A DNA stretch of 64,000 nucleotides from an uncultured Chloroflexia bacterium. Lineage in GTDB: Bacteria > Chloroflexota > Anaerolineae > CG2-30-64-16. The translations under genes were made by a program, and so were the position numbers. The first letter of the stretch is position 1. The number at the start of each line of letters is the position of its first letter. The stretch covers positions 79,376-143,375 of the forward strand of contig CAWIPK010000005.1 in the NCBI GenBank assembly GCA_963837925.1, written 5' to 3'. Of this stretch, positions 38,167 through 60,075 are shown piece after piece. The notes under the pieces are model-generated. The model did no database searches and was not told the DNA's origin. It saw nothing but the letters and a program-made list of their open reading frames with translations.

Positions 38167-38558
38167 AGCGGGGACAGATCATAAAGGGCCAGCCACTGCG
38201 CTGGGCCACCGTGCTGCTCTGGATGGCCTTGATTTTCTTCTTGTCGGCGCAGTCTCAGTTGCCGAACCTGACCCCCGCCGCGCCCGGCCTGGAGGAGATC
38301 GGTGGGCACCTGTCTGCCTATTTCGTACTGGCGCTCTTGCTGCGCTGGACCCTTGCCGGCGCCGGCGTGCGCCACCCCGCCTGGTGGGCGGTGGGACTCT
38401 GTGCCCTCTACGGCATCAGCGACGAATTCCATCAGAGTTTCGTCCCGCATCGCGACCCGGCGGTCGGCGACTGGATGAACGACGTGCTGGGAGCCAGCGC
38501 CGCCATGCTCCTCAGCTGGCTGGCAACTCGCCTCACGCTTCGGCATCGTTCTCGCTGA
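38163..38558 (+). CDS. VanZ-family membrane protein.
   Basis: 131 aa. VanZ signature LYGISDEFHQSFVPHRDPAVGDWMNDVLGA. Overlaps the GT4 stop by 4 nt. Confidence 0.7.
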   Translation: MKRGQIIKGQPLRWATVLLWMALIFFLSAQSQLPNLTPAAPGLEEIGGHLSAYFVLALLLRWTLAGAGVRHPAWWAVGLCALYGISDEFHQSFVPHRDPAVGDWMNDVLGASAAMLLSWLATRLTLRHRSR

Positions 38559-39321
38559 CGCCATTTCCATTGGCCGAGATCTCCGCCCCCTCTACCGGCC
38601 GGATGACGATCTCGCCAAAGAGCAGGCTCTGCTCGGCCTGCACCTGGTGGCGCTTCAACAACTCCAGCAAGGCCTGCAGGGTCACGATGATCTCCACCCG
38701 ATTGCGCGTGAACCGGAGCAGCGAACCGAACACGACCGGACGGTTTCCGGCTGTCGCCTGGGCGATCAGCCGTATCTGGTCATGGATGGTCACGGTGAAT
38801 GGTGCCACGACTGTGCCCACCGGGGGCTTTGGTAGCTCGACCACGAACGCTGCCTGCGCGGCAGCCAGCAGGTCCGCCAGCGACATGGCGTCACTTTCAA
38901 GGTGGCGCTCGAGCTCTGGCGGACCGGCCACGCGCAGGTAACTGCGCAATCCCCGTTCCTCGATGAACCGCAAGGCCTCCGCCGCGTCACGGAAGCGCTT
39001 GTACTCGCGCAACTGCCGGGCCAGCGCCTCGCCGGGATCCTCTTCGTCCTCGCCGTTCTCGCTATTGGTGGGCTGAGGCAGCAGCAGGCGCGACTTGATG
39101 TAGACCAGCCGGGCGGCCATCACCAGGAAGTCCGCCAGCGTGCCCGGCTGCACCTTCTCGATCGATCTGACGAAGTCCAGGAACTGGTCCGCGATCTGCG
39201 CCAGCGAGACGGCGGTGATATCGAGCTTCTCGCGCTCGATCAGGTGCAAGAGCAGGTCCAGCGGACCTTCGAAGACCGGCAGACGCACCTGGTAGGCTTC
39301 ATTCTGTAAGGAAGCGAGCAT
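38533..39321 (-). CDS. scpA: Segregation and condensation protein A.
   Basis: FEGPLDLLLHLIEREKLDITAVSLAQIADQFLDFV is the ScpA N-terminal signature. 262 aa. Confidence 0.85.
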   Translation of the reverse strand: MLASLQNEAYQVRLPVFEGPLDLLLHLIEREKLDITAVSLAQIADQFLDFVRSIEKVQPGTLADFLVMAARLVYIKSRLLLPQPTNSENGEDEEDPGEALARQLREYKRFRDAAEALRFIEERGLRSYLRVAGPPELERHLESDAMSLADLLAAAQAAFVVELPKPPVGTVVAPFTVTIHDQIRLIAQATAGNRPVVFGSLLRFTRNRVEIIVTLQALLELLKRHQVQAEQSLLFGEIVIRPVEGAEISANGNGVSENDAEA

Positions 39322-39362: not shown

Positions 39363-42300
39363 TCAGGCGTCGAAGGTCTTGAACTCTTTGCCGGCCGCCG
39401 CCATATCGTCCAGTATTTGCTTTGTTTCTGCGAACGAGGCGCCGCCTATGCGTTCCACTTTGCAGCCTGCCGCCCGCAGGTCTTGCTCGACCTGGTCGGG
39501 AATCCCTAGCGGCCCGCCCACGATGGTCACGTACCGGGCGCTACGGGCGTCTTCGGCCGAGAAGCCGGCCGTCGGCTGGAAGCGGGCGATGTAGTTGATG
39601 GCCCCGTTCCAGTCATCCCTGGCCCAATCGGTCGCACTTCGCCAGAAAAGCAGATAGTGGTTGACGCTCGCGCAGCCTGCTGCCGCCGCCTGGACTGCCC
39701 GCACCCGCGTCTGCAGCAGGTCACGCCACTTCTGGCCAGACTGCCATTGATTGCCAGGGCACTCTGTTGCGCTCTCCGGATACTCCCTGTGGCCCAGCAC
39801 CCGCTCGATGGGGATGCCTAGTTCCTGCATCAGCCAGGCCACCAGGTCCCCCAGCCGCTCGATCTGCAGTGGGGTGGGGATCACGTCGTTGAAGTTACCG
39901 GCCGTACAAATGCCCACCAGGCAACTGTTGTTATTGTACACGTTGTAGGCGATTGTCTCCAAGCGGTTGACCTGATAGATCGTCCCGTCCGCTTCGACCA
40001 GGAAATGGTAGCCGATCCCCGGCCAACCCTGGCTCACGTGGTAGGCGGCGATCGATGAGGGCGCCACATTCGCTGGCGCCGCGCTGTGATGGATGGCCAG
40101 GTGCGTGATGCTGCCCTGCGCCCGCGTGTCGTAGCGCAAATTTGGGTGCTTGGGTAACTGGTCGGTGATGTCTTTGATCGCGGGACGTGCCGCCCGCGCC
40201 GGTGCCGCGGGTTGTGCCGGGCCGGCCTGCAGAGACTGGATGCATGCCTGCAAATCGCTGATCTGCTGCTGCATCGCAGCCAGTTGCGCCGCCAACTGCT
40301 CGTTGTCGCCGGTGAGGGCTTGGATCCGCTGCGCCAGCTCGCTCTGATCGACCGTCAGCGCCTGCACCTGTCCCAGCAGCTTCGCCTTGTCATCTGCCAG
40401 CGCGCCGGTCTCGGCCTGTAGTTCATCGCGTTCGCGGGTCAATGCGGCCAGGCTGTTTTGAGCCGCCAATAGGCTGGCCTGGAGGCCGGCCAGGTCGTCT
40501 GCGGCGGGCGCAGGCGCCGGGCTGCCTTGCAGGCGGGTGATGGCGTCGAGGAGCAGGTTTTTCCAGGCCTTGCCCTGCGACCACTGTAGCCCCGGGGATT
40601 GCGTGGCGATGAAGTCGCTGGCGCCCTTGACGCGCTCCGCCGGGATCTGGTACTCCTGCATCAGCCACGCGCTTAGCCGGGCGGCCGAGTCCATTTGAGC
40701 TTGCGCCGGCACGTCTTCGTTGAAGTTGCCGGCCAGCCCGATATTGATCCCCTGCGCGATCCAGGTCTGCGATAGATCCACTGCCGCCTCGATCGGTTCG
40801 GTCTGCAGGATCGAGCCGTCGGGTCCGATGAAAAACTGGTACAGGATCGCTCCCCAGCGCTTCTGATGGGCGGCGGCCACGCGTTCGACGCCGACCGTGG
40901 CGTCGACTGCCGTGTGGTTGAAGACCAGAAAGCGAATCTGGTCGGCCGGCCGGCTCTTGAGCGCGCCATCGTTGTGGGGTAAGCGCGCGCTGATATCGGT
41001 CAGGGGTGGGGCGCTGAGCAGTTGTTCCGCGGCCCGTGAAGGTGGCCGGTTGGTTTCTCGACCCAGCTCTGGCGTCGCGCCGTCCTCGAGGCTGACGATC
41101 TCGACGCCGGGCAGGATCAAGCGGCGCTCGCTCTCGGCGGCCTGCGCGGCCGGGCTCACGGCATCATCCCCGGCGTCTGATCGTGCTTGTGGCGCCGGTG
41201 CCTGCGGCTGATCGCCCAGCGCACGTTGTCCGGCGTGCTCGGCCTGCCCCGTCTGCAGTTGCTCGCTGCGGGTTTGTGTGCCCAGAATGGCCCGGACTTG
41301 CTGCAGCAGCATATCCTTCCAACGCCAGCCGCTCATCCACTGTATCCCGGGCGATTGGGTGGCAACAAACTCGCTGGCGCCGCGCAAGGCGCTTTCGTCC
41401 AGGCCGTATTTTGCCAGCAACCAGGCCACCAACTGGGACAGAGCGCTCAGTTGCGCGGGAGACGGCACTGTCTCGTTGAAGTTGCCCGCCACATAGATGT
41501 TGATGCCATTATAGAACCAGGCCAAATCTGGGGTGACGGCTTCGTCCAGCGGTTCCGTCTGCTGGATCTGTCCGTCACCGCAAACGTAATACTGGCTGAC
41601 AATCCCAGGCCAACGCGCCCGTTGTGCGCGCGCCACGGCCGCCGCGCCGACCTCGGGTCGCACGGCCGTATGATTGACGACGACGTACTTGACGTCTCCG
41701 GCAGAACGTTTTGCGAAACCGGCCGGGTCACGCGGCAATTGGAGCGTAATGTCCGTGACCGGTGGCATGGGCAGCTGCCCGCCGCCCTCCTTCGCCAGTT
41801 GAGCGGCGATCTCTGCCTGCAACTGGACGATCAGCCCCTGCAGCTGGCTAACCTGGCTCTGCAGCGAGCCGTTCTGCTTCTGGAGCACACTGTTCTGCGC
41901 CTGCAACTCGGCCACCTGGGCCCTGAGCTGAGCGATTTGCTGGCTAACGTCCACTTGTTGCACCTTTACCTCCACCGAAACCGGCTTGCTGGCTTTCATT
42001 GCGGCAAACCAGCCGTCGCTATCTTCTACCAGGTCCCACTGTAGCCGGTAGGCGCCGGCATCACCCGGTGCCGCCACGCGGGCCTGAATCGACACAGTCT
42101 CATCTGGTTGCACCGTTCGTGCGAGTGGCGTGCGCAGCGCGGGCTGAGGGGCCGCGGCCACGGGCTCCCCGCGGCTGTTCAGCCACTGATAGCCCAGCCG
42201 GACCCGCTCGCAGTCCCACGGTTTGCACCCCGAATTGCGCAGTACGAGCGCCACCTCCACCGTCTGCCCGGCGTCCATCTGCGATGGCGTGTTCTGGCTG

Positions 42301-43349
42301 AGGAAGTCCACGCCGTAGATCGGGGGCGGTGGGATGCTCGGCCAGCCGTACTGGTAGGCCATGGCCTGTCGGAGATCCTCGATGACCCCGCCCTTGCCGT
42401 CGATGACCCACTGGTCGTCCCTCGACCAGCGATAGAGGATAACGGCGCGAATCGTCTGATGGCATGGCTGCCGGTTCCACCAGTCGATCTCGCCGTATAC
42501 TCGCTGCACCCAGCCAGTGTTCTTGTCGAGCCACGGTTCGCCCTGGTCTGTCTCCGTCAGGTAGACCGGCAAAGCGCGCATGGCGCGCGGTACGGCGTCC
42601 AGGAAGTCCTGGTAGCAGCGAAAGTCGTAATGCCGATGCGCGAACGGTGGCTGCATCCAGGTGTCGGTATAGACGAGGCTGGGATCTTGACCATGAGTAT
42701 AAGCGTGAAGCGCAATTCCGTCGCAATTGCTTGGTCCTATTGTCTTGAGCAGATCCTGCAGGTAGGTGACCCAGTCTCCCAGCGGGTTACCGGTGTAGGT
42801 CGTCTGGTTGTTCCATGGCCCGACCCCCGCGACCAACACCTGGTCCGCCCCATGGCCGGGCAGGGCTTTAATGGCTTTGCGACAGCGGAGGTAGCAGTCG
42901 GCATATAGTCCCGGGACGATCACCTCGCCGGAAAGTGTCGGCTTGCCACCGCCGTCGAAGCCGACGCCTGGTCTTTCGATCGGTAGGTTGGGTTCATTGC
43001 CGATGACCCAAATATGGCAGCCGGGCGAGGCAGCCGCCCAGTTCGCGCAGCGCTGCGCGAACTGGGCGTAGCGTCTGGAGTGGGGGATGGTGCCTTCGGG
43101 CGCGTAGCCGTTGTTGAGGCGCGCGATGATTCCGAAGCCTCGGTTGGCCCAGGGACTGTAGTCGTGGCCCGAATGGTCGCTCGGATCGCTTCCCAGCTTC
43201 TCGGTGAAGAGGATCCAGCCGAACAGGTTGCGCTCGGCCAAAACGCTTTCGCCGCCTGGATCGTGCAGGCCGTACAGGTATGGTGAGTCGTTCAGTGGGC
43301 GGGGCATGGCCCCCTCCATGGGTGGTAGAGCAGGCGGAAGCAACCACAA
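39363..43349 (-). CDS. Multidomain secreted cell-wall hydrolase (1328 aa). It has an N-terminal GH5-like TIM-barrel glycosidase domain, a beta-sandwich region, coiled-coil segments, three Amidase_2 (N-acetylmuramoyl-L-alanine amidase / PGRP-like) domains of which only the third keeps the Zn ligands, and a C-terminal cell-wall-binding-repeat-like tail.
   Basis: GH5-like motifs IWVIGNEPN and YLTETDQ. Q/L-rich heptad stretches (LRAQVAELQAQNSVLQKQNGSLQSQVSQLQ). Amidase_2 copy 3 has HHSA, GYHF, GHRE and TECPG. Copies 1 and 2 have NHTA, YYV/YQF, GASEF/GASDF and TQSPG. The tail reads ERIGGASFAETKQIL. Confidence 0.75.
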   Translation of the reverse strand: MWLLPPALPPMEGAMPRPLNDSPYLYGLHDPGGESVLAERNLFGWILFTEKLGSDPSDHSGHDYSPWANRGFGIIARLNNGYAPEGTIPHSRRYAQFAQRCANWAAASPGCHIWVIGNEPNLPIERPGVGFDGGGKPTLSGEVIVPGLYADCYLRCRKAIKALPGHGADQVLVAGVGPWNNQTTYTGNPLGDWVTYLQDLLKTIGPSNCDGIALHAYTHGQDPSLVYTDTWMQPPFAHRHYDFRCYQDFLDAVPRAMRALPVYLTETDQGEPWLDKNTGWVQRVYGEIDWWNRQPCHQTIRAVILYRWSRDDQWVIDGKGGVIEDLRQAMAYQYGWPSIPPPPIYGVDFLSQNTPSQMDAGQTVEVALVLRNSGCKPWDCERVRLGYQWLNSRGEPVAAAPQPALRTPLARTVQPDETVSIQARVAAPGDAGAYRLQWDLVEDSDGWFAAMKASKPVSVEVKVQQVDVSQQIAQLRAQVAELQAQNSVLQKQNGSLQSQVSQLQGLIVQLQAEIAAQLAKEGGGQLPMPPVTDITLQLPRDPAGFAKRSAGDVKYVVVNHTAVRPEVGAAAVARAQRARWPGIVSQYYVCGDGQIQQTEPLDEAVTPDLAWFYNGINIYVAGNFNETVPSPAQLSALSQLVAWLLAKYGLDESALRGASEFVATQSPGIQWMSGWRWKDMLLQQVRAILGTQTRSEQLQTGQAEHAGQRALGDQPQAPAPQARSDAGDDAVSPAAQAAESERRLILPGVEIVSLEDGATPELGRETNRPPSRAAEQLLSAPPLTDISARLPHNDGALKSRPADQIRFLVFNHTAVDATVGVERVAAAHQKRWGAILYQFFIGPDGSILQTEPIEAAVDLSQTWIAQGINIGLAGNFNEDVPAQAQMDSAARLSAWLMQEYQIPAERVKGASDFIATQSPGLQWSQGKAWKNLLLDAITRLQGSPAPAPAADDLAGLQASLLAAQNSLAALTRERDELQAETGALADDKAKLLGQVQALTVDQSELAQRIQALTGDNEQLAAQLAAMQQQISDLQACIQSLQAGPAQPAAPARAARPAIKDITDQLPKHPNLRYDTRAQGSITHLAIHHSAAPANVAPSSIAAYHVSQGWPGIGYHFLVEADGTIYQVNRLETIAYNVYNNNSCLVGICTAGNFNDVIPTPLQIERLGDLVAWLMQELGIPIERVLGHREYPESATECPGNQWQSGQKWRDLLQTRVRAVQAAAAGCASVNHYLLFWRSATDWARDDWNGAINYIARFQPTAGFSAEDARSARYVTIVGGPLGIPDQVEQDLRAAGCKVERIGGASFAETKQILDDMAAAGKEFKTFDA

Positions 43350-43409
43350 AATGCTGCATCAATATTATACAACAAAAGCCTATTACGTGTCTAGCGTGTA
43401 TTTTCGCGT

Positions 43410-47424: not shown

Positions 47425-47456
47425 CAGTCTTGTTTTTCCGCCAAAGGAGTATGTCT

Positions 47457-48569
47457 ATGGACAAAGTGGAAATCGGACGGATGTTGAGCCTGCTGACACA
47501 GGCCGACGGCTTGTCAGGGGCCGAAGAGCGCGTCGCCGCCGTGGTCCAGGATCTCGCCCGCCCCTACGCGGCTGAAGTGCGCGTGACCCCACTCGGCAGC
47601 GTCATCGCCTTCAAGCCGGGGACGGGCAGTGGTGAGCCGGGTCCACGCGAAACCGGGGCACCGGCCCGCGGCCGGGTGATGTTGGCGGCTCACATGGACG
47701 AGATCGGCCTGATCGTCACCAGGGTCGAAGGAAGCTTCCTGCACGTCGCTCGGGTCGGTGGCGTGGACCCTCGCTCCCTGCTTGCCCAGGAGGTGACGGT
47801 CTATGCCTCCGGTCCGGGTGCTTGTCGGCACCCGGACGGTTTAGCCGGCTATATTGGCAGCCGTCCGCCGCACGTGCTCTCCGAACAGGAGCGCTCCAAA
47901 GTGGTGGCGCTCGAGTCATTGCGGATCGACGTAGGCGCGCCGTCCATCGGCGCCCTCGTCCGCGTCGGCGATCGCGTCGCGGTGCGCGGCGCCTACAGCG
48001 AACTGCTGGGTGGCCGGGTGGTCAGCAAGGCCTTGGATGACCGCGCCGGCGTGGCGGCGATGCTCGGGGCGCTGGGCTATCTCGCCGAGATGCAGCACAG
48101 TTGGGACGTCTATGCCGTCGCCACGATCCAGGAGGAAGTTGGCGAAATGGGCGCGGCGACGGTCGCGTTCGGCGTCGCACCGGACGTCGCGATCGCCCTC
48201 GACGTGACCTTCGCCGACACGCCGGGCCTCGACGATGCCCAGACGGTCGAAATGGACAAAGGCCCGGTCATCAGCTGGGGGCCAAACCTACACCCCGGCA
48301 TGGTCAAGAAACTCCGGGAGGTGGCCGACGGTATCGAGCTCGGCTATGTCAGCGAGCCGGTCCCCGGCCATTCCGGAACCGATGCCTGGGCCATTCAAGT
48401 CAGCCGGGCAGGGGTGCCGACCGCCCTGGTGGGCATGGCGGTCCGCTACATGCACTCCGCCACCGAGATGGCCGCGCTGGCGGACGTTGACCGGACCGCG
48501 CGCTTGTTGGCAGCCTTTGTCAGCCGGCTGGACGGCGAGTTTCTCGCTCAGCTGCCGGAGGAGGTTTAG
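47457..48569 (+). CDS. M42-family (TET/FrvX/YsdC-type) aminopeptidase, paralog 1.
   Basis: HMDEIGLIVT, ALDDRAGVAA, EEVG and D-V-A-I-A-L-D motifs of M42 peptidases. ATG at 47457, 6 nt after AAGGAG (ORF open from 47430). Confidence 0.85.
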   Translation: MDKVEIGRMLSLLTQADGLSGAEERVAAVVQDLARPYAAEVRVTPLGSVIAFKPGTGSGEPGPRETGAPARGRVMLAAHMDEIGLIVTRVEGSFLHVARVGGVDPRSLLAQEVTVYASGPGACRHPDGLAGYIGSRPPHVLSEQERSKVVALESLRIDVGAPSIGALVRVGDRVAVRGAYSELLGGRVVSKALDDRAGVAAMLGALGYLAEMQHSWDVYAVATIQEEVGEMGAATVAFGVAPDVAIALDVTFADTPGLDDAQTVEMDKGPVISWGPNLHPGMVKKLREVADGIELGYVSEPVPGHSGTDAWAIQVSRAGVPTALVGMAVRYMHSATEMAALADVDRTARLLAAFVSRLDGEFLAQLPEEV

Positions 48570-48572
48570 GGC

Positions 48573-49649
48573 ATGAGCATGGTCGATCTACGTGGCCTGC
48601 TGGAAAGATTGTCAAACGAGATGGGTGTCTCGGGCCGCGAACGGGCCGTGCGCACGCTCGTGAAGAACGAGGTAGAAGCCCTGGTCGATCGCCTGGAAGT
48701 CGATGCGCTGGGCAACCTGATCACCTACAAGGCGGGTGATGGCCCTGAGCCGCGATTGCGGATCATGCTCTCGGCTCACATGGACGAAGTCGGTTTCATG
48801 ATCACCAAGGTCGAGAAAAACGGCCTCTTGCGCTTCGCCGGCGTCGGTGGGCCTGACCGGCGCACGCTCTTGGGCAAGCGGCTGATCATCGGCGACGAAC
48901 GACTGGTGGGCATCATCGGGGCCCAGCCGCCTCATCTGCTGAACCGCGATCAGTGTGATCGGAGCGTCCCTATCGAAGAGCTCGCCATCGACATCGGGGC
49001 CACCAGTGACAAAGAGGCCGGTGGCAAGGTGAAGGTCGGCGATTATGCCACTTTTGCGACGCGTTTCAGCGTGCTCAGCGAGGACCCGGCCTTTCCGACT
49101 GTCCGCGGCAAGGCTTTCGACGATCGCGTTGGCTGCAGCGCCCTGATCGGCCTGCTGGCCGAGCGATACCCAGTTGACATAGTCGGCCTCTTCAGCGTGC
49201 AGGAAGAGGTCGGCTTGCGGGGGGCGCGCGTGGCGGCCTACCGAACTGAGCCGGATGCGGCAATCGCCCTGGAAGGCAACACCTGTGACGACACTCCGAG
49301 GCCGCCCGACGAAGAGGGCACGCCTGTGACGCGCGTCGGTGACGGCCCGGCCATCACCATCATGGATCGCAGCTTCTTCACGCATCCTGGCATGCTTCGT
49401 CTGTTCCGAGAGACGGCGGAGGCGGAGGGCATACCCATCCAGTATCGGGCGCCGGGTTTTGGCGGCACCGACACGGGCGCGATCCACCTCAGCCGGGCGG
49501 GAGTGCCATCCATCCAGGCCGGGATCCCGTGCCGCTATATCCACGGCCCGGCCAGCATCCTGAACCTGAACGATCTGACCAACACCGTGCGCCTGGTCGG
49601 TGCAGCGCTGCAGCGCATCGACCGCGGCTACCTGATGCGCCAAGACTAG
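48573..49649 (+). CDS. M42-family aminopeptidase, paralog 2.
   Basis: HMDEVGFMIT, AFDDRVGCSA, QEEVGLRGA, AIALEGN. Starts 3 nt after paralog 1. Confidence 0.85.
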   Translation: MSMVDLRGLLERLSNEMGVSGRERAVRTLVKNEVEALVDRLEVDALGNLITYKAGDGPEPRLRIMLSAHMDEVGFMITKVEKNGLLRFAGVGGPDRRTLLGKRLIIGDERLVGIIGAQPPHLLNRDQCDRSVPIEELAIDIGATSDKEAGGKVKVGDYATFATRFSVLSEDPAFPTVRGKAFDDRVGCSALIGLLAERYPVDIVGLFSVQEEVGLRGARVAAYRTEPDAAIALEGNTCDDTPRPPDEEGTPVTRVGDGPAITIMDRSFFTHPGMLRLFRETAEAEGIPIQYRAPGFGGTDTGAIHLSRAGVPSIQAGIPCRYIHGPASILNLNDLTNTVRLVGAALQRIDRGYLMRQD

Positions 49650-49664
49650 CGATAGGAGTGACTT

Positions 49665-50666
49665 ATGCAAGAGTTGACTGGCCGCCTGACGGGGGCCTTC
49701 GGCATATCGGGCCACGAGGATGAGATCCGTACGGTGATTCGCGAAGAGATCGCGGGGCTGGTGGACGAGCAGCATGTCGACGCGATGGGGAACCTCGTCA
49801 CCCTGCGCCGCGGCCAGGGCGGGGGCAGGCGGGTCATGCTGGCGGCCCACATGGACGAGATCGGCGCGATGGTGAACTACGTCGACGAGCAAGGCTTCAT
49901 GCGCTTTGCCCCGGTGGGCGGGCTTTATCCCTCGATCTGCCTGGGACAGCAAGTCCTGTTTGCCGACGGTACGGTTGGCAGCATCGGATTGGACGGACGG
50001 GCAGACCGCAACCAGGCGCCCAAGCTGACCGATCTCTTCATTGACGTCGGGGCCGGCTCCCGTAGTGAGGTCAAGCAGAAGCCGGGCGATCCGGCCGTTT
50101 TCCGCCAGCGCTTCGCCGCGCAGGGGAACGCCTGGTTTGCGCCCAACCTGGATGACCGTATCGGCTGCGTGGTTCTGATCCAGTTGCTGCGCGAGCTCAA
50201 GGGGAAGGACATCGCCCACGACATCTACGGTGTTTTCACTTCACAGGAAGAGGTCGGCACCCGCGGCGCGGCGACTTCCGCCTATGCCGTCAATCCAGAC
50301 ATGGCGATAGCGCTTGACGTTACCCTTACCGGCGATACGCCGCACGCCAATCCGGCCATGGAGGTGTACATGGGGCGCGGCGCGGCGATCAAGGTCCAGG
50401 ACAGCGGCATGATCGGCCACGTCGGGCTGAACCGTCTGCTCATCGCCGCCGCTGAGCGCTCGCAGGTGCCCTACCAGATGGAGGTGCTGACGGGCGGCAG
50501 CACCGACGCGCGTGCCATGCAGATCGCACGCGAAGGCGTGCCGGCCAGTGCGATCTCCGTGCCCAGCCGGCACGTTCACAGCCCATCGCAGATCGTCGAC
50601 CGGCGCGATGTCGAGGCCTCTGTCGCCTTGCTGGTGTCGTTGCTCGGGGCCCCGATACAGCTCTAG
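49665..50666 (+). CDS. M42-family aminopeptidase, paralog 3.
   Basis: HMDEIGAMV, NLDDRIGCVV, QEEVGTRGA, AIALDVT. RBS GGAG. Confidence 0.85.
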   Translation: MQELTGRLTGAFGISGHEDEIRTVIREEIAGLVDEQHVDAMGNLVTLRRGQGGGRRVMLAAHMDEIGAMVNYVDEQGFMRFAPVGGLYPSICLGQQVLFADGTVGSIGLDGRADRNQAPKLTDLFIDVGAGSRSEVKQKPGDPAVFRQRFAAQGNAWFAPNLDDRIGCVVLIQLLRELKGKDIAHDIYGVFTSQEEVGTRGAATSAYAVNPDMAIALDVTLTGDTPHANPAMEVYMGRGAAIKVQDSGMIGHVGLNRLLIAAAERSQVPYQMEVLTGGSTDARAMQIAREGVPASAISVPSRHVHSPSQIVDRRDVEASVALLVSLLGAPIQL

Positions 50667-53228: not shown

Positions 53229-55439
53229 TCAGCACTCGCGTACCCAACCCGGTCCCGGTTTGGCCAGGGTATCGGCCAGATGCCGCCAAGCCATGAACGC
53301 CTCTTCCTTGGGCCGCCCGGTGGTCCAGTCCATCTGTGCCAATGCATCGGCGAGAGGAGTAATCTCGACGCCCCGCCCGTGAATGCCGACCACGCTCGCG
53401 CCCGAACGTCCGGCCTGGATGTCTTCCATCAGCTGCCTGACTGCCCATAAACCGAGCCGGGTGCCCTGGATACGGTCGAAAGCGGTCGGTACGCCGCCAC
53501 GTTGCAGGTGCCCCAGGATTACGGTGCGCACGTCGAACGCCCCGCCGGCCTCAGCCTCCAGCACCTGGCGTACGAAGGTCGCATCATAATAGGGTGACGC
53601 GCCTTCGGACATCACCACGATACTCAACTTCTTGCCCCGCTCAAAGCCCTCGCGCAACCTTTCCACATCCGCCTCGAGGCACTTCAGGGTGAGCCGGTCT
53701 TCTGGCAGCAATTCCATCTCGGCCCCGGTCGCGATGCCGCTGGACAGCCCCAGGTAGCCGCACTCGCGCCCCATCACCTCGACAACGTATGCCCGGTGAG
53801 CTGCCCCGGCGGTGTACTTGATCTTGTCCACGGCGTCGGTGATATTGTTGAGCGCGGTGTCGGCGCCGATGCATACCTCCGTCGCCGGCAGGTTATTGTC
53901 AATCGTTGCCGGCACACAGATGGTCGGGATGTTCAGTTCGGGGTGTCTCTCGCGCGCCGCCACCAGTTTGTCGACCTCGGTGTAAGTGTCCAGCCCGCCC
54001 ACCGCGATCAGCCCGCGGATGTCCCACTTGCGTATGGTGTCCGCGACCGACGCGATCTCCTGCTCGGTCAGAACGTGGCGTACCGCGCCCAACTCGCTGC
54101 CGCCCTGCGCCATCCAGGATTGGACGTCCATCCACTGCAGATCCCAGATGTCTTCCCGTGCCAGCCCCGCGAAGCCGTAGCGCACGCCCACCACATCTTG
54201 CCCTTCGTTCATCGCGTAGCGCAGCACCGTTCGCAGAACGGCGTTCATGCCCGGCGAATCCGGACCGCCGGTCAGCATGGCGATACGTCCGCGCTCACCT
54301 ATCTCCTCGCGTGGTTGCGCGCGGCTGAGGGTCTTCAGGAGGTTCAGGGCATCGATGAAACTGCTGCCCCGCAATTCCAGCGCTTGCTCGAAGCGCCCCT
54401 GCTCGATCTCGACGTTGACAGCCTGGCTCTTGCTGATCACTTCGCTGAGGGGAGTGGCCACCGGCCGGTTATGGAGCAAGCCGATCATCACCGGCGTCGC
54501 GTCCGGCCCGGCCAGGTAGTCGACCGCCGCGGCACCCAGCCGGCTGGCGAGGACCCGGTCGAACGCGCTCGGGGAACCGCCCCGCTGTACGTGACCGAGC
54601 ACGGTCACGCGTGCTTCCATCCCGGTTCGCGCGCGCAAGACTTCCTGAATCGTCTCCGCACGGATGGGCAAGCCATCATTGTGACGCGCGCCTTCGGCAA
54701 ACAGAATGATGTCGTGCCGCCGCCCGGCAGCCCGGCCGTGTTTCAAGGCATCTGCCATGCGAATGTGCCAGCGCGCATCCATTTCCTCTTCGGGGATCAA
54801 CACCCAGTCCGCGCCGGTGGCGACTGCGCCCATCAATGCCAGGTAGCCGCAGCGACGGCCCATGACCTCGACAATGAAGGTGCGCTGGTGCGCGTCAGCC
54901 GTCGACGTCAGCTTGTCAACCGCCTGCACGATCGTGTTCAGGGCCGTATCGGCGCCGTGGCTCATGTCCGTGCCGTACAGGTCGTTGTCGATCGAGCCGG
55001 GCAGGCCAACGATGAGGAATGGCTGAGCGCCGGTCGCCTTCTCCACCGGGATCACCTCGGTCGCCGCCAGCGCCTTGAGATGCTCTTCCCACTCCTCGTG
55101 CAAGACCAGCGCGCCGGTCAGCGAGCCGTCGCCGCCGATCACCACCAAACCATCAATGCCGGCTTCGACCAGGTGGCGCACGGCCTGGCGCCTGCCCTCC
55201 AAGGTGCGGAAGGCATCCGAGCGGGCCGTGCCCAGGACTGTGCCGCCCGCTTGCAGGATGCCGCCGGCGCTGCGCCAGTTGAAGGGCTCGAAATACCGGC
55301 CACCCATGAACACGCCTTGCCACCCTTCGTGGATGCCGACGACTTCCATCCCTTTATCCAGGGCGCAGCGCGTCACTGCCCGGATGCACGCATTCATGCC
55401 CGGAGCATCGCCGCCGCTGGTTATGATGCCGATGCGCAT
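53229..55439 (-). CDS. Tandem-duplicated (eukaryote-like, ~736 aa) 6-phosphofructokinase. The N-terminal half is catalytically intact and the C-terminal half is degenerate.
   Basis: Start MRIGIITSGGDAPGMNACIRA after GGAGG. N-half has GGDGSLTGA, PGSIDNDL and MGRRCGY. C-half has GGPDSPGMNA, GGLDTYT, PATIDNNL (catalytic Asp -> Asn) and MGRECGY. The ORF is open upstream to 55472. Confidence 0.85.
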   Translation of the reverse strand: MRIGIITSGGDAPGMNACIRAVTRCALDKGMEVVGIHEGWQGVFMGGRYFEPFNWRSAGGILQAGGTVLGTARSDAFRTLEGRRQAVRHLVEAGIDGLVVIGGDGSLTGALVLHEEWEEHLKALAATEVIPVEKATGAQPFLIVGLPGSIDNDLYGTDMSHGADTALNTIVQAVDKLTSTADAHQRTFIVEVMGRRCGYLALMGAVATGADWVLIPEEEMDARWHIRMADALKHGRAAGRRHDIILFAEGARHNDGLPIRAETIQEVLRARTGMEARVTVLGHVQRGGSPSAFDRVLASRLGAAAVDYLAGPDATPVMIGLLHNRPVATPLSEVISKSQAVNVEIEQGRFEQALELRGSSFIDALNLLKTLSRAQPREEIGERGRIAMLTGGPDSPGMNAVLRTVLRYAMNEGQDVVGVRYGFAGLAREDIWDLQWMDVQSWMAQGGSELGAVRHVLTEQEIASVADTIRKWDIRGLIAVGGLDTYTEVDKLVAARERHPELNIPTICVPATIDNNLPATEVCIGADTALNNITDAVDKIKYTAGAAHRAYVVEVMGRECGYLGLSSGIATGAEMELLPEDRLTLKCLEADVERLREGFERGKKLSIVVMSEGASPYYDATFVRQVLEAEAGGAFDVRTVILGHLQRGGVPTAFDRIQGTRLGLWAVRQLMEDIQAGRSGASVVGIHGRGVEITPLADALAQMDWTTGRPKEEAFMAWRHLADTLAKPGPGWVREC

Positions 55440-55483
55440 CTCGACCTCCAAGATCGTCCTGAAAGCGAACAACCGATGACGGA

Positions 55484-55608: not shown

Positions 55609-58600
55609 CTAGCCTTGGGCAGGCGCTCGGCCCAGTCGCCGGCCCGGCAGCCTGGCCCGAATCACCGCAAAGTCGTCGCCGCTGAAGGTGCGCGTGATGA
55701 GGAGGGCTACCAGGTAGGCCAGGAAGCCGGCCAGAAGCCCGAGCGCCAGGGGCAGGCCGGCCCGGTTCATCCCCCAGACGATGACCACGTCGAGTATCGC
55801 TCCCAGAATCGGGCGCCCGGTCAACGCCAGCCACGGCATCGGCGCCACGTAACGGTGCACGGCCCAGGCGAACGGGATGAACAGCGACAGTTCGGCCGGG
55901 ATGAGGATCGCCGATGCGGCCAATGAGCCATAGCGCGGCACGAAGAGAAGGTTGGCCAGGGTGCTGAAGATGACGCCGATGAGGAACGCTTTGGTGAGGA
56001 AGCGCTGTTGATTCACCGCGATCAGGACATACTGCGTTACGGAGTTTATGAAGCCGATCGGGATCGACCAGATCATGACGCTGAAGCTGGTGGCCGAATC
56101 GGGCAGGAAGGCGGTCCCGCCGGCGATCTGGACCAGTGGGGTGGCGGCGAAAGAGGCAAAGACGGCGATCGGCAGCGCGACGATCAGCAGCAGTTGGACG
56201 GCCAGCCGGTAGGCCTTCACCAGCCCATCGCCGCCCGCGTAGGCGTACCGGCTCATCAACGGGAAAATCGCCTGCGTCGAGAAGGCGGGGATCACGTTCA
56301 GGCCGTCCAGGAACTTGACGCCAACCGAAAAGATACCCAGGGCGGTCGCGCTGGTGGCGCCGCGCAGCACGAATTGGCTTATGCGCCAGAAGACAGTGGC
56401 CAGCAGATTATTGATCATGAGCGGCGCCGATTCGCGCAGCATCTCGCCTTGCAGCTTCCAGTCGAAGCGCAGTGGAGCCGCGGCCCAGCTCAGGCGAGGC
56501 CGGAACGATGTGCGCCTGCTGACCGGTTCGACGCCCTCGAAGGCCGGCTCCGCCGCGCCGTGCCCCTTCTGCCGGGGTTTGAGCACCTTTTGCTCCAACA
56601 CCACGTACAACCAGACCACCTGCACGATGTTCATGAACAACGAAACAACGGTCAGGCCGACAAAACCGAGGCTCAACGGGGGCAGCAGGATGAGCGCGCC
56701 CAGCGCTACCTTGCCCACCGTCGTCGCCGTGGCCAGCGCGGCCGGGTATTCCATTTCTTCATAGGCATTGAAGACAGCGCTGATCGCGTCCGCGATATTG
56801 GCGAAGAACAGCGCCACCGCGAAGATGGCGATCGCCTGGCCCTCAGGTCCGCTCAGTTTGCCCCCGGCCCGGTAGGCCATTGCGGCGAGGAAGATGATCG
56901 GCAGGCTGGCGAGCCAGAGGAGAGTGCGCAGGCCGAGGACATTGACCATGTAGCGTCTGCCCTGGCTACGGTCACGCGCAACGTCGCGCGTTAGTAGGGT
57001 ACCCAGGCCCCAACGGATAAGGATGTCGAACACCATGTAGAAGTTGATGGCGTTGACGTAGCTCCCCTCGCCCTCCGGGCCGAGGATACGCAAGCGCAGC
57101 ATTGTGAAAGCGAAGTCGATGCCGCGGTTTACCAGTTGCATCACCACCAGCACCACGGTGTTCTTGGCCGCGGTGCCGACTTCGCTGCGCATCCCGCGGT
57201 AATAGCGGTTCCAGGCCCAGGCCCCGGCCAGCAGCGCGAGCGTGACCGCGCACAAAAAGCTTAGGTAGATGCCCAGCAGAAAGCTCTGTGGCGAGTAAAC
57301 GAAGCGGATTGTCCATTGGCCCGCCCGGTCGAGATAGACGGCTCTGAAGGTGCCATCTGCCCGATAGAGCGTCATCTGCTTCTCTACCGAATCACCCGAC
57401 GCGCTCACGCCCTCGCCTTGGGCGCCGAAAGGCCGGATGTAAGCTTTCCACCCGGGGAAGAAATTCTCAGTGAAGACCAACCAACCCCGGTCGCTGACGT
57501 TGACGTCGACCATAACCTGGCGCATGCCGCGCGCGCTGATGCGCGCCTCATGCACTTGCGGTGCGGACGGCGCTGGGACCGCATCGGCGTTCAGCCCCTC
57601 CAGAACGACCGTCTGGGCCGGGTCTACCTCTTGCAGCGCGTCCAGCGCGGCCTGCTGATCTGGGGCTGCCTCCGCCGTCGAGGCGATGAACACGCGTGGC
57701 AAAGCCCTGGTGTTCTCGTAGACGCGCACCTCTCCCGCCACCGGGCGATGATCCGTCGGATAGGCCAGCCGGTAACCCTGGTTGACCACGTCCTGAGTCG
57801 TCATCACGAAGCGCACGCCGAGGAGGTTCAGCAGCCCGTTGTCAAGCGCATCGCTCCATTCCCCGCTGCCAGGTCCATAGAAGGGAGCAATGCGGTTGTA
57901 GAGCAGCTCACCCTGGTTCTGGATGCGCTGCATGTAGGCCACATACTGGCTCGGGATCATCGAGTCGTAGCCGCGGATGTCCTCCAGCCCATAGGACATG
58001 GCCGCGTTAGCGTTCAGCAGCTTCTCGCCCGGTGCGTCGTAGGTGGTAAAACGCCAGGGCTGGCTGTTGTCGATCATGCCCTGCAACCAGCCGATGACAG
58101 GCGGCTTATAGGCCAGAAGCCGCGGATCACTGGCCGGGTTGAAGGCGTGCCCGAACAACCAGAGGTCGAGTATCAGCACGCCGATTGCCGCGATAGGCCA
58201 GGCTCGCAGGCGGGGGCTGCCTGGTTTGGGAGCATGTCCTGCTCTGCCGCCCGTAGCAGTGCCCGAGAACAGGACAGCCGCGGAGAGCGCGGCCAGCGCG
58301 CCAAAGCGCGCCAGGCCGGACGCCTCGTAGCTCCAGGCCATCGCGCCGTCGGCGAAGCCCCGCGTGCGCGCCAGTTCCGAGGTCGCCAGCAGCCTATCGC
58401 CCAGGGCCACGAACGGGCCGGGCAGGATCAGGCTGAGTGCGACGGCCGCCAGGCTACCCAGGCCCGCCAGGGCCGTCAACGCTGCCAGCACGCGTACCGC
58501 GCGCCGCAAGTGGGGGGAGAGACCCCCGCGCAGCAGCAGATCCAGGCCAAAGCCGGCGAGCAATGCCATGCTGAGCGTGTACGGAAACACCCAGCGGAAA

Positions 58601-60075
58601 GCCGAATGTAGCTGATTGTAGCCGGGCACCAGGTAAAAAAGCACCGCGTAGACCGGCGTGCCGAAGGCGAAAAGAAGCGAGAGGACCGCCAGAACCAGGA
58701 ACCCCGTCTTCGGACCGGATGGAAGCCCGCTGGACAGGCTCGGACCGGGCAGAGACGAGCCGTCGGTCCTGTTCCGCCGCAGGCCGGCCCAGCTCGTCGT
58801 TAGCACGGAGAAAGACGCCACCAGCGCCAGCAGCAGCGTCAGCAGGCCGAGGTAGTTGGCGCCCTCGACGTAGTTCTTGATGCCCCAGTCGATCGCACCG
58901 TTCGTGATGCTCTTCAGCGGTTGGCCGAGCGCGTTCAGGTTGACCGGCACCCATGACCGCTGCCAGATATCGAAGTAACTGTGACTGGTGGGATTGCCGA
59001 AGAAATCAGGCAGGACGAAGGTGAGGATCTGCTTTTTCGGCCACGCCCAGTTGATGACCTGCTGCAGGTCGGCCGACCCTTGCCGGAAGTTTTGCGCGGC
59101 CAGCTCGTACATCGGCACGAGCTGCACTCCGGCCAGACCCATGCCGAGCACCACCATCCCCAACAGCCAGGCCGCGGCCTGCAGCGTGCGGGCCCAGCGT
59201 GCCTTGGGGGACAGACCAGCAGAACGCAGTCGCAGCCAGCTGCCGCCCAGCCGCCAGGCCGCGTAGAATGCGCTGACCATCAGCACGTAATAGGTGATTT
59301 CGACGTGGCCGGCCAGGGCTTGCAGCCCGAAGAGGACCGCACCCAAGGCCACATACGGGATTGGGCCGGCGGGGCCACGCTCGCGACGGGCCGGCGCGGT
59401 CACACTCTGCCCTGGCTGCCCGACTCCCGCCTCCTCCCTGCCCGTCACGACCGTCCGCACCACCAGCTCGATCGCGGCCAGGATCAGCGGCAGCCAGGCC
59501 GCGGCTGCGATGATCATGGTGAAGTTCACGCTGCTGATGAAGAAGCCGGAAAAGCTGAAGGCCACAGCCGCGAGGAAAGCCGCCGGCCGGCGCTGGCCGA
59601 GCAGACGGGCGAACAGATAGGTCCCTGCCGCGGCCAACCCCAACTGGAGCCAGGTGAAGACGCCATACGCGAGCCAGAGTGGCAAGACGTAGAAGACGAC
59701 GCTCAACGGATAGAGGGCGGAGTGCTGACCGGCGGCGAGAAAGGGTATCCCGGCGAACAGCCGCGAGTTCCAAAGTGGGATCTGACCGTCGCTCAAAGCG
59801 TCGCGCAGCAGTGACTTCCACTGGTAGTTTTCAAGCACGAGATCGCTGACCAGCGGATTTTGCGGCACGCCCGCGTCAAAGGCAGCGGACGCTCCGGCCC
59901 AAGGCTCAAAGGCGTACAGGTTTTCCGCGGGAAGAAGAGTTTTGCCGCCGAGGGTTTGCGGCCCAAACCAGAGCAGGGGCAGCAGGAGCAGCAAAAGCAG
60001 TATCAGGGCGTCTTGCCTGCGCGACGATTTCAAGTCAATACCTGAGATTCGCGATCTCTCTTCGGGCGACCTCAC
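55609..60075 (-). CDS. 1488-aa fusion: N-terminal YfhO-family GT-C-fold membrane glycosyltransferase (~900 aa) plus C-terminal Wzx/MOP-type polysaccharide flippase domain (~500 aa).
   Basis: N-terminal part has the YfhO pattern (ENYQWKSLLRDALSDGQIPLWNSRLFAGIPF ... many TM helices). C-terminal part matches Polysacc_synt/MOP flippases (LRLRILGPEGEGSYVNAINFYMVFDIL ... 12+ TM helices). It is a single uninterrupted ORF with a GTG start that overlaps the upstream GT2 gene by 41 nt. Confidence 0.75.
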   Translation of the reverse strand: MRSPEERSRISGIDLKSSRRQDALILLLLLLLPLLWFGPQTLGGKTLLPAENLYAFEPWAGASAAFDAGVPQNPLVSDLVLENYQWKSLLRDALSDGQIPLWNSRLFAGIPFLAAGQHSALYPLSVVFYVLPLWLAYGVFTWLQLGLAAAGTYLFARLLGQRRPAAFLAAVAFSFSGFFISSVNFTMIIAAAAWLPLILAAIELVVRTVVTGREEAGVGQPGQSVTAPARRERGPAGPIPYVALGAVLFGLQALAGHVEITYYVLMVSAFYAAWRLGGSWLRLRSAGLSPKARWARTLQAAAWLLGMVVLGMGLAGVQLVPMYELAAQNFRQGSADLQQVINWAWPKKQILTFVLPDFFGNPTSHSYFDIWQRSWVPVNLNALGQPLKSITNGAIDWGIKNYVEGANYLGLLTLLLALVASFSVLTTSWAGLRRNRTDGSSLPGPSLSSGLPSGPKTGFLVLAVLSLLFAFGTPVYAVLFYLVPGYNQLHSAFRWVFPYTLSMALLAGFGLDLLLRGGLSPHLRRAVRVLAALTALAGLGSLAAVALSLILPGPFVALGDRLLATSELARTRGFADGAMAWSYEASGLARFGALAALSAAVLFSGTATGGRAGHAPKPGSPRLRAWPIAAIGVLILDLWLFGHAFNPASDPRLLAYKPPVIGWLQGMIDNSQPWRFTTYDAPGEKLLNANAAMSYGLEDIRGYDSMIPSQYVAYMQRIQNQGELLYNRIAPFYGPGSGEWSDALDNGLLNLLGVRFVMTTQDVVNQGYRLAYPTDHRPVAGEVRVYENTRALPRVFIASTAEAAPDQQAALDALQEVDPAQTVVLEGLNADAVPAPSAPQVHEARISARGMRQVMVDVNVSDRGWLVFTENFFPGWKAYIRPFGAQGEGVSASGDSVEKQMTLYRADGTFRAVYLDRAGQWTIRFVYSPQSFLLGIYLSFLCAVTLALLAGAWAWNRYYRGMRSEVGTAAKNTVVLVVMQLVNRGIDFAFTMLRLRILGPEGEGSYVNAINFYMVFDILIRWGLGTLLTRDVARDRSQGRRYMVNVLGLRTLLWLASLPIIFLAAMAYRAGGKLSGPEGQAIAIFAVALFFANIADAISAVFNAYEEMEYPAALATATTVGKVALGALILLPPLSLGFVGLTVVSLFMNIVQVVWLYVVLEQKVLKPRQKGHGAAEPAFEGVEPVSRRTSFRPRLSWAAAPLRFDWKLQGEMLRESAPLMINNLLATVFWRISQFVLRGATSATALGIFSVGVKFLDGLNVIPAFSTQAIFPLMSRYAYAGGDGLVKAYRLAVQLLLIVALPIAVFASFAATPLVQIAGGTAFLPDSATSFSVMIWSIPIGFINSVTQYVLIAVNQQRFLTKAFLIGVIFSTLANLLFVPRYGSLAASAILIPAELSLFIPFAWAVHRYVAPMPWLALTGRPILGAILDVVIVWGMNRAGLPLALGLLAGFLAYLVALLITRTFSGDDFAVIRARLPGRRLGRAPAQG

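Follow-up and report, generated by a model that had tools for sequence, protein, structure and literature searches.

Phage endolysins are phage-encoded, leaderless and located next to a holin; they include the modular clostridial enzymes CD27L and CTP1L, in which an Amidase_3 or GH25 domain is joined to a C-terminal "trigger and release" domain, and T7-lysozyme-type enzymes such as LysT. A host-encoded relative of phage lysins is LytA of Streptococcus pneumoniae, a leaderless Amidase_2 autolysin that reaches the wall without Sec and has a single catalytic domain with a His/His/Asp zinc triad, choline-binding repeats and a C-terminal wall-polymer-binding region. The Sec-exported proteins PcsB, EnvC and RipC, which are regulated by FtsEX, join long coiled coils to a hydrolase-type domain and are linked to cell division. 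The Amidase_2 fold also occurs in Drosophila PGRP-SA, a non-catalytic sensor. Filamentous Chloroflexota abound in activated sludge, sediments and hot springs and, to our knowledge, their division, cell separation and filament breakage have been little studied.

We analyzed a gene in a 64,000-nucleotide stretch of DNA (the window) whose product, from a filamentous Chloroflexota bacterium, shares features with each of these systems. Like the modular phage endolysins the protein is leaderless, and all of its module types occur in phage lysis enzymes. Unlike them, its gene lies on the chromosome, in conserved synteny with housekeeping genes and with no holin beside it; the protein is four to five times larger and also carries long coiled coils and two amidase copies that are catalytically dead. 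The definition of a phage endolysin given above describes the relatives of its N-terminal barrel rather than the window protein itself. LytA, by contrast, lacks a glycosidase, coiled coils and pseudo-amidases. PcsB, EnvC and RipC gave weak coiled-coil matches and share no homology with the window protein beyond coiled-coil composition; no ftsEX was seen adjoining the window gene. A literature search found no paper on this protein family. With moderate confidence, we lean towards the protein being an endolysin-type autolysin, a leaderless, multi-domain enzyme that hydrolyses the cell envelope in filamentous Anaerolineae and Caldilineae, is chromosomally encoded and vertically inherited, is built from the same kinds of module as phage endolysins and is linked to the cell cycle.

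The gene and its domain layout

The original prediction described a protein of 1328 amino acids. The ORF at 39363..43349 (minus strand) is indeed a single 1328-codon frame, opening at TTG, but the start was moved to Met15, giving a protein of 1314 amino acids. Translation almost certainly begins at the ATG at 43307, which lies 14 codons into the ORF, as judged from a GGAGG located 5 nt upstream, a predicted promoter approximately 57 nt upstream, the length of the database protein P0001 (100% identical to the window protein and 1314 aa long) and the N-termini shared by homologs, nearly all of which begin with the equivalent MxRPLNDSPY. The window protein has a mass of 145 kDa. All of the motifs listed in the original prediction were present at the sequence level. 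The features, all on the minus strand and with amino acids in ORF numbering, were as follows.

43364..43393, minus strand: sigma-70-like promoter TAGACA-18-TATAAT, 11/12 consensus matches (consensus match only)
43310..43317, minus strand: Shine-Dalgarno GGAGGGGG before the Met15 ATG, read directly from the sequence
39363..43307, minus strand: most likely coding sequence, 1314 aa and a stop codon; the ORF as called mechanically opens at the TTG at 43349
42330..43307, minus strand: predicted (beta/alpha)8 clan GH-A glycosidase domain, aa 15-340
42006..42284, minus strand: Nbr1-FW/Ig-like beta-sandwich, PF16158, aa 356-448
41790..41969, minus strand: coiled-coil spacer 1 with Q/L heptads, aa ~461-520; many coiled-coil families match
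41289..41738, minus strand: predicted pseudo-amidase 1 (Amidase_2 fold), aa 538-687; N-S-A-T-S replaces H-Y-H-T-C
40983..41288, minus strand: low-complexity Q/A/P-rich linker, aa 688-789
40542..40982, minus strand: predicted pseudo-amidase 2, aa 790-936; N-Y-A-T-S at the catalytic positions, TQSPG motif
40224..40505, minus strand: coiled-coil spacer 2, aa ~949-1042; coiled-coil families match
39696..40157, minus strand: predicted intact N-acetylmuramoyl-L-alanine amidase, T7-lysozyme/PGRP type, aa 1065-1218
39366..39665, minus strand: C-terminal alpha/beta (Rossmann-like) domain, aa 1229-1328
38533..39321, minus strand: scpA (SMC kleisin), PF02616, 87 bits, 41 bp downstream on the same strand

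The domain order is therefore GH-A barrel, Nbr1-FW/Ig-like domain, coiled coil, pseudo-amidase 1, linker, pseudo-amidase 2, coiled coil, intact amidase and C-terminal alpha/beta domain.

The N-terminal barrel

The barrel has the hallmarks of clan GH-A, with an Asn-Glu acid/base after strand 4 and a nucleophile Glu at strand 7. The putative acid/base is Glu119 (GNEP, within IGNEPN at aa 116-121) and the putative nucleophile Glu266 (TETD, within LTETDQ at aa 264-269), in ORF numbering. The GH-A signature (R63, N104-E105, H201-x-Y203, E252 and W294) was conserved in virtually all of the 120 family members (Y203 in 118/120, W294 in 119/120 and the other positions in 120/120), in viral homologs wherever the region was present (W294 in 33/44) and in 91-98% of 141 newly fetched barrel representatives. 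From these residues the barrel is predicted to be a catalytically intact clan GH-A glycosidase, and it is presumably retaining, as that clan is.

The barrel had originally been called GH5-like. A glycosidase barrel with GNEP and TETD stands; the assignment to GH5 specifically does not, as there is no Pfam glycoside hydrolase match and the domain falls within neither Pfam Cellulase (PF00150) nor a CAZy GH5 subfamily. Searched alone, it had no meaningful match in Pfam (E <= 10), in PHROGs or in a PDB sequence search, and the region had none in NCBIfam when the full-length protein was searched. Compared with GH-A structures (GH39 5jvk and 1w91, PslG 4zn2, GH128, GH51, GH26 and GH5) it was 7-18% identical, with GH39/PslG and GH128 structurally nearer than GH5. 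Membership of GH39/PslG was not indicated by sequence (no Pfam match, 13-17% identity), and a beta-sandwich (the FW domain) follows the barrel. The domain family comprises 1,291 cluster representatives at 50% identity and probably merits a family of its own; with no model in Pfam, NCBIfam or PHROGs, and with its recurrence in lysins of uncultured phages, it is a candidate for a new family in CAZy. The described GH-A glycoside hydrolases belong to a biomass degradation context, whereas the context here is wall-lytic, and we know of no peptidoglycan-cleaving member of the clan.

The barrel was 36-53% identical to leaderless lysins of uncultured-phage lysis cassettes, in which M23, GH108, SLT or muramidase domains are joined to it; its closest relatives outside the family are phage lysins adjoining a holin. 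The domain is absent from isolated-phage collections (tblastn against 50,697 isolated-phage genomes gave zero matches), and a BFVD fold search found only remote GH5-like phage proteins (TM 0.45-0.6). The phage resemblance noted originally is real, and reflects homology rather than a likeness, given these relatives and the fold of the C-terminal tail. The accompanying comparison with spore-cortex enzymes found no support, as no similarity to SleB, CwlJ or GH18 appeared anywhere in the results. Some barrel relatives carry classical signal peptides which, together with fusions to LysM, SH3_3, M23, muramidase, GH108 and SLT, implies an extracytoplasmic substrate. Because the barrel recurs in uncultured-phage lysins, its family might also supply lysins for use against filaments that cause bulking.

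Amidase copies, spacers and tail

Each amidase copy, including the first two, passed the Pfam gathering score for Amidase_2 (PF01510, 26 bits) by itself, with 45.8, 55.4 and 81.7 bits for copies 1, 2 and 3, so the three domains proposed originally were all recovered. Copy 3 has the motifs HHSA, GHRE and TECPG and retains the His/His/Cys zinc ligands as well as the catalytic Tyr and Thr (H-Y-H-T-C), as in catalytic members of PF01510, where Asp can take the place of Cys and Lys that of Thr. Copies 1 and 2, which have NHTA, GASEF or GASDF, and TQSPG, do not. The last copy is a predicted zinc amidase that would cut the MurNAc-L-Ala bond of peptidoglycan. It matched best to endolysin families (PHROGs) and to the solved phage and clostridial amidases 6srt, 6fhg and 1lba; the alignment to 6srt retains TECPG.

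Across the 120 homologs examined, the last copy was H-Y-H-T-C in nearly all proteins in which it was complete (HCHTC in four, HWHTC in one), and the upstream copies lacked His2 and Cys with one exception. Mean pairwise identity was 58% for the active copy, 47-48% for the dead copies and 28-30% for the linkers, indicating that the dead copies are under purifying selection. Loss of the zinc ligands, and the retention of this degeneracy throughout the family, argue for retained binding modules, and the original suggestion that copies 1 and 2 are probably non-catalytic and bind peptidoglycan is upheld at the level of sequence. These copies appear to be conserved, catalytically dead modules resembling PGRP-SA, to which copy 2 aligned with E = 4e-6 and an identical TQSPG motif. 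As in PGRP-SA and PGRP-LC/LE, whose function is binding rather than amidase cleavage, an Amidase_2 fold has its zinc-binding Cys changed to Ser; for the window modules, a binding role is putative. Unlike those proteins, the window modules are bacterial, are internal to a hydrolase and have also lost both His ligands. They may represent a bacterial parallel to the peptidoglycan sensors of animals.

The Nbr1-FW/Ig-like domain, a probable glycan-binding or spacer module, was marginal when scanned alone (PF16158, N_BRCA1_IG, 30.6 bits against a gathering score of 28) and scored 25.4 bits in the full-length protein; the match is precomputed for P0001. The coiled-coil spacers of the original prediction were confirmed by matches to coiled-coil families in both regions. 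Matches to SMC, ZapB, DivIC, FtsL, PcsB and IcmG were rejected as compositional, being far under cutoffs and confined to the coiled coils. A known defence system was likewise rejected, as PADLOC gave only chance-level coiled-coil matches for the protein and three barrel-containing relatives. The linker between the pseudo-amidases is poorly conserved and varies from 33 to 153 aa across the family, and the whole linker from pseudo-amidase 2 to the active amidase from 45 to 314 aa.

The C-terminal domain is likely a wall-binding or oligomerisation module. Its best fold matches are the C-domains of clostridial phage endolysins and it also resembles CWB2 wall anchors, which agrees with the cell-wall-binding-like tail first proposed; it does not qualify as a CWB2 repeat in the strict sense of a PF04122 match and three tandem copies that form a pseudo-trimer. 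A profile search with the tail retrieved little beyond fragmentary or split members of the same family, and gave no independent functional clue.

Export, neighbourhood and role

The description of the protein as secreted found no support, since the whole family is leaderless, with no signal peptide, twin-arginine motif or membrane anchor. No signal peptide, Tat motif or TM segment was found in any of the 120 homologs examined; the RR motif was absent from all 120, and the 115 with complete N-termini begin directly with the barrel. The highest Kyte-Doolittle hydropathy over any 19-residue window was 1.11. No holin-like gene adjoins the window gene. The lack of any export signal across the family counts against the autolysin reading and makes it of interest by what means a large lysin can pass the membrane with no holin gene beside its own.

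A rival reading, which we regard as unlikely, is that the protein is a programmed-death or altruistic-lysis effector, stored in the cytoplasm and freed when the membrane is breached by phage, stress or a developmental signal; lysis of the cell would then halt phage spread along the filament or break it at sacrificial cells. The family is leaderless like endolysins, the barrel's nearest outside relatives are phage lysins beside a holin, and Caldilineae-type loci carry a second leaderless barrel-M23 lysin in tandem. The same barrel is elsewhere fused to EAD1, STAND ATPase and WD40 domains, which are typical of conflict and cell-death systems in multicellular bacteria; effectors of the lysozyme and peptidoglycan-peptidase kinds linked to EAD1 have been noted in such systems (PMC7159879). 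However, no sensor domain, whether EAD, STAND or another, occurs in the window protein, no defence-system model matches it, its neighbours are housekeeping genes, the conserved linkage is to scpA rather than to a trigger or holin, and universal vertical conservation fits a core cell-cycle role better than an accessory defence gene.

The absence of an export signal would also suit cytoplasmic peptidoglycan recycling, with a NagZ-like barrel and an AmpD-like amidase acting on imported muropeptides; a glycosidase and an amidase form a recycling pair, and several homologs are named "AmpD" by JGI. We consider this very improbable. The zinc triad of AmpD is His/His/Asp, whereas the one predicted here is His/His/Cys together with Tyr and Thr, the arrangement of T7 lysozyme and PGRPs, and endolysins are the best family matches. 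An enzyme acting on a soluble substrate would have no use for two pseudo-domains that bind the wall, an Ig-like domain, long coiled coils and a tail of the CWB2/endolysin kind, and the barrel's relatives are secreted or lie within phage lysins.

A degenerating prophage remnant, or an antibacterial lysin released on lysis against competitors, would share the module set of phage lysins but is most doubtful, since there are no phage genes nearby, relatives in different orders retain the synteny and the full-length architecture down to 31-36% local identity and the catalytic residues are invariant or nearly so, all of which points to long-term purifying selection as a host gene. The statement that no phage genes are nearby held in a Pfam scan of the 21 neighbouring ORFs; neither a tRNA nor an integrase-type prophage boundary turned up, and the window contains no tRNA. 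The gene is chromosomal and occurs widely among Anaerolineae and Caldilineae, with at least 470 loci in GTDB species genomes, the best 80 of which were Chloroflexota MAGs (one labelled only "uncultured bacterium"). Together with the housekeeping neighbours and an upstream synteny common to relatives (MBL, TPR, TgpA and M42), this indicates a host gene and not a prophage.

If the protein is a host autolysin, as we favour, the barrel would cleave a wall glycan, which could be the backbone of peptidoglycan or a secondary polysaccharide linked to it. By binding muropeptide, the dead amidase copies would keep the enzyme attached to the sacculus, the Ig-like and C-terminal CD27L/CWB2-like domains would add wall binding or oligomerisation, and the variable coiled coils would space or regulate the two catalytic heads. 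The target would be the septal wall during or after division, for daughter-cell separation or filament breakage. The wall would be reached by a Sec/Tat-independent route, as for pneumococcal LytA and endolysins, through membrane permeabilisation or an exporter. We speculate further, with low confidence in the whole, that the barrel founds a new glycoside hydrolase family, used by Chloroflexota phages and their hosts, that cuts a wall glycan no known lysin domain attacks, and that the host protein, with the Caldilineae barrel-M23 paralog and scpA co-transcription, executes a Sec-independent, cell-cycle- or death-gated wall opening that sets the sites of filament separation or breakage.

The link to scpA noted originally, from co-directionality in the window, was strengthened by its conservation: scpA lies directly downstream in 6/9 independent lineages and the adjacency is missing in the other three checked. 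The window gene and scpA are probably co-transcribed, given the 41 bp gap with no terminator-like site. Such co-transcription in most lineages would imply expression alongside the chromosome-segregation machinery, and the adjacency could also be a neutral operon remnant. As a near-universal and mostly scpA-linked putative autolysin, the protein is a concrete candidate for a role in division or separation of filamentous Chloroflexota. A downstream scpA was seen for the window gene, P0002, P0015, P0041, P0060, P0070 and P0075, at distances of 6-41 bp with one case of 166 bp; in best local alignments with the window protein, the last five proteins reached 33-45% identity.

Gene start and modular anatomy

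Our analyses showed the protein to be a predicted two-headed endolysin-type wall hydrolase, leaderless and with conserved, putatively binding-only amidase modules. Its gene is chromosomal and in most cases forms an operon-like pair with scpA. The protein belongs with the known modular autolysins and endolysins; no description of its family was found in the literature searched. Three aspects make it worthy of attention: an uncatalogued family of lysin glycosidases, conserved PGRP-SA-like pseudo-amidases and a leaderless lysin linked to scpA. The observation underlying the original prediction was right and most of its interpretation stands, with the exception of the labels "GH5" and "secreted".

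The gene was confirmed as a single ORF containing all the motifs that had been quoted for it:

39363-43349, minus strand: hydrolase ORF, 1328 codons, mechanical start TTG

GNEP and TETD were found within residues 1-270 of the ORF, copy 3 of the amidase carried HHSA, GHRE and TECPG, and copies 1 and 2 carried NHTA, GASEF or GASDF, and TQSPG. The predicted length of 1328 aa is correct for the ORF, but the functional protein is very probably 1314 aa, with translation beginning at an ATG at 43307, 14 codons inside the TTG-started ORF. This start was supported by a GGAGG 5 nt upstream, a promoter-like site (TAGACA-18-TATAAT at 43393-43364, minus strand), the length (1314 aa) of the 100% identical database protein P0001, and the equivalent of M-x-R-P-L-N-D-S-P-Y being the N-terminus of nearly all homologs with complete N-termini in a set of 120. 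The in-frame extension from the TTG to the ATG contributes only MWLLPPALPPMEGA.

Scanned singly, the three Amidase_2 copies scored 45.8, 55.4 and 81.7 bits, such that each of the three exceeded the Pfam gathering score (26) alone, in agreement with the proposed homology of the first two repeats. An Nbr1-FW/Ig-like domain (PF16158) scored 30.6 against a cutoff of 28, and coiled-coil families matched at residues ~461-520 and ~949-1042. Neither the N-terminal 326 residues nor the C-terminal 112 residues had a match in Pfam, NCBIfam or PHROG, and structure models of both regions were built from family alignments. The C-tail was modeled as a small alpha/beta fold (pLDDT 89.4), and phmmer gave it a weak match to SlpA (E = 0.027).

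Relatives varied in their modules. Many (P0004, P0006, P0008, P0015 and others) had a conserved ~55-aa module, F-x-x-T-G-(H/K)-T-A-(R/K)-G-x-F-...-Y-G-L-D-x-T-G-Y-P-I, after the barrel and ahead of coiled coil 1, where in some it substitutes for the FW/Ig domain; the module had no Pfam match and is absent from the window protein. A short form of ~785 aa (P0090, P0096-P0112) was built from the barrel, a single pseudo-amidase, one coiled coil and the live amidase, without the FW domain, the second pseudo-amidase or the C-tail; at one such locus (L005) the upstream synteny was kept and the scpA adjacency was not. Two assemblies each had a truncated member of the family together with a standalone C-tail ORF (P0278 with P0057, P0274 with P0120); within each pair the contigs were equal in length (208,660 and 794,025 bp) and are presumably one and the same. 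Such pairs would reflect gene splitting or a frameshift, or else tails translated independently as in CD27L and CTP1L.

Dead and live amidase copies

Three-way alignment of the copies, used to map the T7-lysozyme/PGRP catalytic positions, gave H-Y-H-T-C for copy 3, N-S-A-T-S for copy 1 and N-Y-A-T-S for copy 2. The Zn-ligand positions thus bore out the view that only the last copy is intact, and the pattern was family-wide. Among the 120 homologs, only five proteins departed from H-Y-H-T-C in a complete last copy, four with HCHTC and one with HWHTC. In the upstream copies, bar one exception, A, V, L or I stood at the second His position and Ser at that of the Cys, and most had also lost the first His (N or S instead).

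Mean pairwise identity was 47–48% for the dead copies, 58% for the live copy and 28–30% for the linkers, and this greater conservation than that of the linkers indicated that the dead copies are maintained by selection. Copy 2 aligned with Drosophila PGRP-SA, a non-catalytic peptidoglycan sensor (E = 4e-6), and TQSPG is present in both. The best PHROG matches of the live copy were endolysins and amidases, and its best matches among solved structures were the amidases 6srt and 6ssc, the Thermus phage endolysin LysT, T7 lysozyme and catalytic PGRPs.

The barrel and its lysin relatives

The N-domain model consisted of eight beta-alpha units (pLDDT 93.9) with the clan GH-A signature: Arg63, Asn104-Glu105 just past beta4, His201-x-Tyr203, Glu252 in beta7 and Trp294. 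The signature was retained in essentially 120/120 family members (Phe replaced Tyr203 in two and Tyr replaced Trp294 in one), in 91–98% of 141 newly fetched barrel representatives and, wherever the region was present, in viral homologs, although Trp294 was found in just 33 of 44 of these. Based on the model and this conservation, "GH5-like" was correct for the clan but wrong for the family, and the modeled barrel should be named "unclassified clan GH-A" rather than "GH5".

A barrel profile search identified 1,291 cluster representatives, and among the 141 newly fetched the barrel opened the protein at its N-terminus in 111. In IMG/VR, 45 loci were 36–53% identical to it. Their proteins were leaderless and 320–770 aa long, with the barrel followed by M23, M23+SLT, the muramidase PF11860 or SH3+GH108; among the uncultured-phage loci L038, L042, L033 and L007 the barrel was combined with M23+SLT, SH3+M23, muramidase or SH3+GH108. 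These lysin genes were located in phage lysis and packaging modules:

L038, 5450-8301: lysin, its start overlapped by a holin-like gene (phrog_199) directly upstream; terminase downstream
L042, 5992-8088: lysin, after a 1663-aa tail-fibre or minor-head protein
L015: lysin, preceding the terminase

The barrel was not found in 50,697 isolated-phage genomes or in PHROGs, and a BFVD fold search returned remote GH5-like folds and nothing closer. The phage resemblance noted previously was stronger than claimed, as the sequence comparisons demonstrated homology with lysins of uncultured phages. We regard the barrel as an uncatalogued lysin glycosidase family of predicted activity. Its co-occurrence with muramidase, SLT or GH108 in phage lysins suggests that it cuts a bond that these do not, which would be either the other glycosidic linkage of peptidoglycan or one in a polysaccharide attached to it.

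Other barrel proteins (P0156, P0175, P0178, P0173, P0209, P0217) carried EAD1+SH3_3, STAND ATPase+PD40, WD40 propellers+Amidase_2, RHH+LysM or muramidase PF11860, tying this wall-lytic domain to conflict or cell-death-type architectures of multicellular bacteria. EAD1-, STAND- and WD40-type domains typify the conflict systems of such bacteria, and EAD1-linked lysozyme and peptidoglycan-peptidase effectors have been noted in them (PMC7159879). Because of the EAD1, STAND ATPase and WD40 fusions, the window protein might alternatively, though less probably, be a death or abortive-lysis effector, although it has no sensor domain of these types and matched no defence model.

Export, chromosomal setting and proposed function

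The label "secreted" has to be dropped. The conserved barrel begins at residue 1–10, no homolog has an N-terminal extension, the top hydrophobicity of any 19-residue stretch of the window protein (1.11) is under the transmembrane range, and a twin-arginine motif was found in 0/120 homologs. Nonetheless, the barrel substrate must be extracytoplasmic, given its recurrent fusion to LysM, SH3_3, M23, muramidase, GH108 and SLT domains and the classical N-terminal signal peptides of some distant relatives (P0195, P0197, P0208, P0225, P0243). The latter indicated that the barrel is Sec-exported in some lineages, whereas it is leaderless in the window family and phages. A cytoplasmic recycling role would fit a leaderless protein but is at odds with an active site of the T7/PGRP type, with the wall-binding modules and with relatives that are secreted or come from phages.

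As originally stated, no phage genes were nearby: the neighbours identified were housekeeping genes (scpA, VanZ, GT4 glycosyltransferase, aminotransferase, HtrA, MBL-fold, TPR, TgpA, three M42 peptidases, PFK, polysaccharide flippase), and the window contained no tRNA. GTDB species genomes held at least 470 loci; of the best 80, 79 had titles naming Chloroflexota MAGs, under Anaerolineae, Caldilineae or related labels, and one just "uncultured bacterium". Full-length relatives preserved the architecture down to 31–36% local identity. Conserved synteny and invariant or nearly invariant catalytic residues argue against a prophage remnant.

The co-directional adjacency to scpA was confirmed and recurred in six homologs.

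Gap to scpA directly downstream
Window: 41 bp, no terminator-like site between
P0002: 37 bp
P0075: 18 bp
P0041: 26 bp
P0070: 6 bp
P0060: 8 bp
P0015: 166 bp

In P0021, P0017 and the short-form P0101, scpA was not downstream and only the upstream synteny was retained. Caldilineae-type loci had a second leaderless paralog 10–24 bp upstream of the amidase gene, giving the cluster order lysin-lysin-scpA:

L001, 4839-7976: paralog of 1045 aa; GH-A barrel, SH3-like repeats, C-terminal Peptidase_M23
L131, 2231-4990: paralog of 919 aa; same domains

The window contained no M23 copy.

We propose that the hydrolase works on the septal wall of the cell that makes it, coordinated with chromosome segregation. 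Its anchors would be the dead copies, the Ig-like domain and the C-tail. The variable coiled coils, which lie in interdomain linkers 33–153 aa and 45–314 aa long across the family, may space or gate both active sites. LytA and endolysins get to the wall independently of Sec and Tat, and by analogy this protein may do likewise.

Three other regions of the window were noted:

47430-50666, plus strand: three M42 aminopeptidase paralogs in tandem
53229-55472, minus strand: 747-aa phosphofructokinase with two PFK stretches (643 bits)
55609-60075, minus strand: 1488-aa ORF, YfhO-like membrane region fused to a Polysacc_synt (Wzx-type flippase) domain

The M42 block and the TgpA, TPR and MBL-fold genes were syntenic with relatives at L005, L133 and L135. 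The two PFK stretches indicated a duplicated long-form enzyme, and the YfhO-like fusion is an envelope-polysaccharide protein of unusual size.
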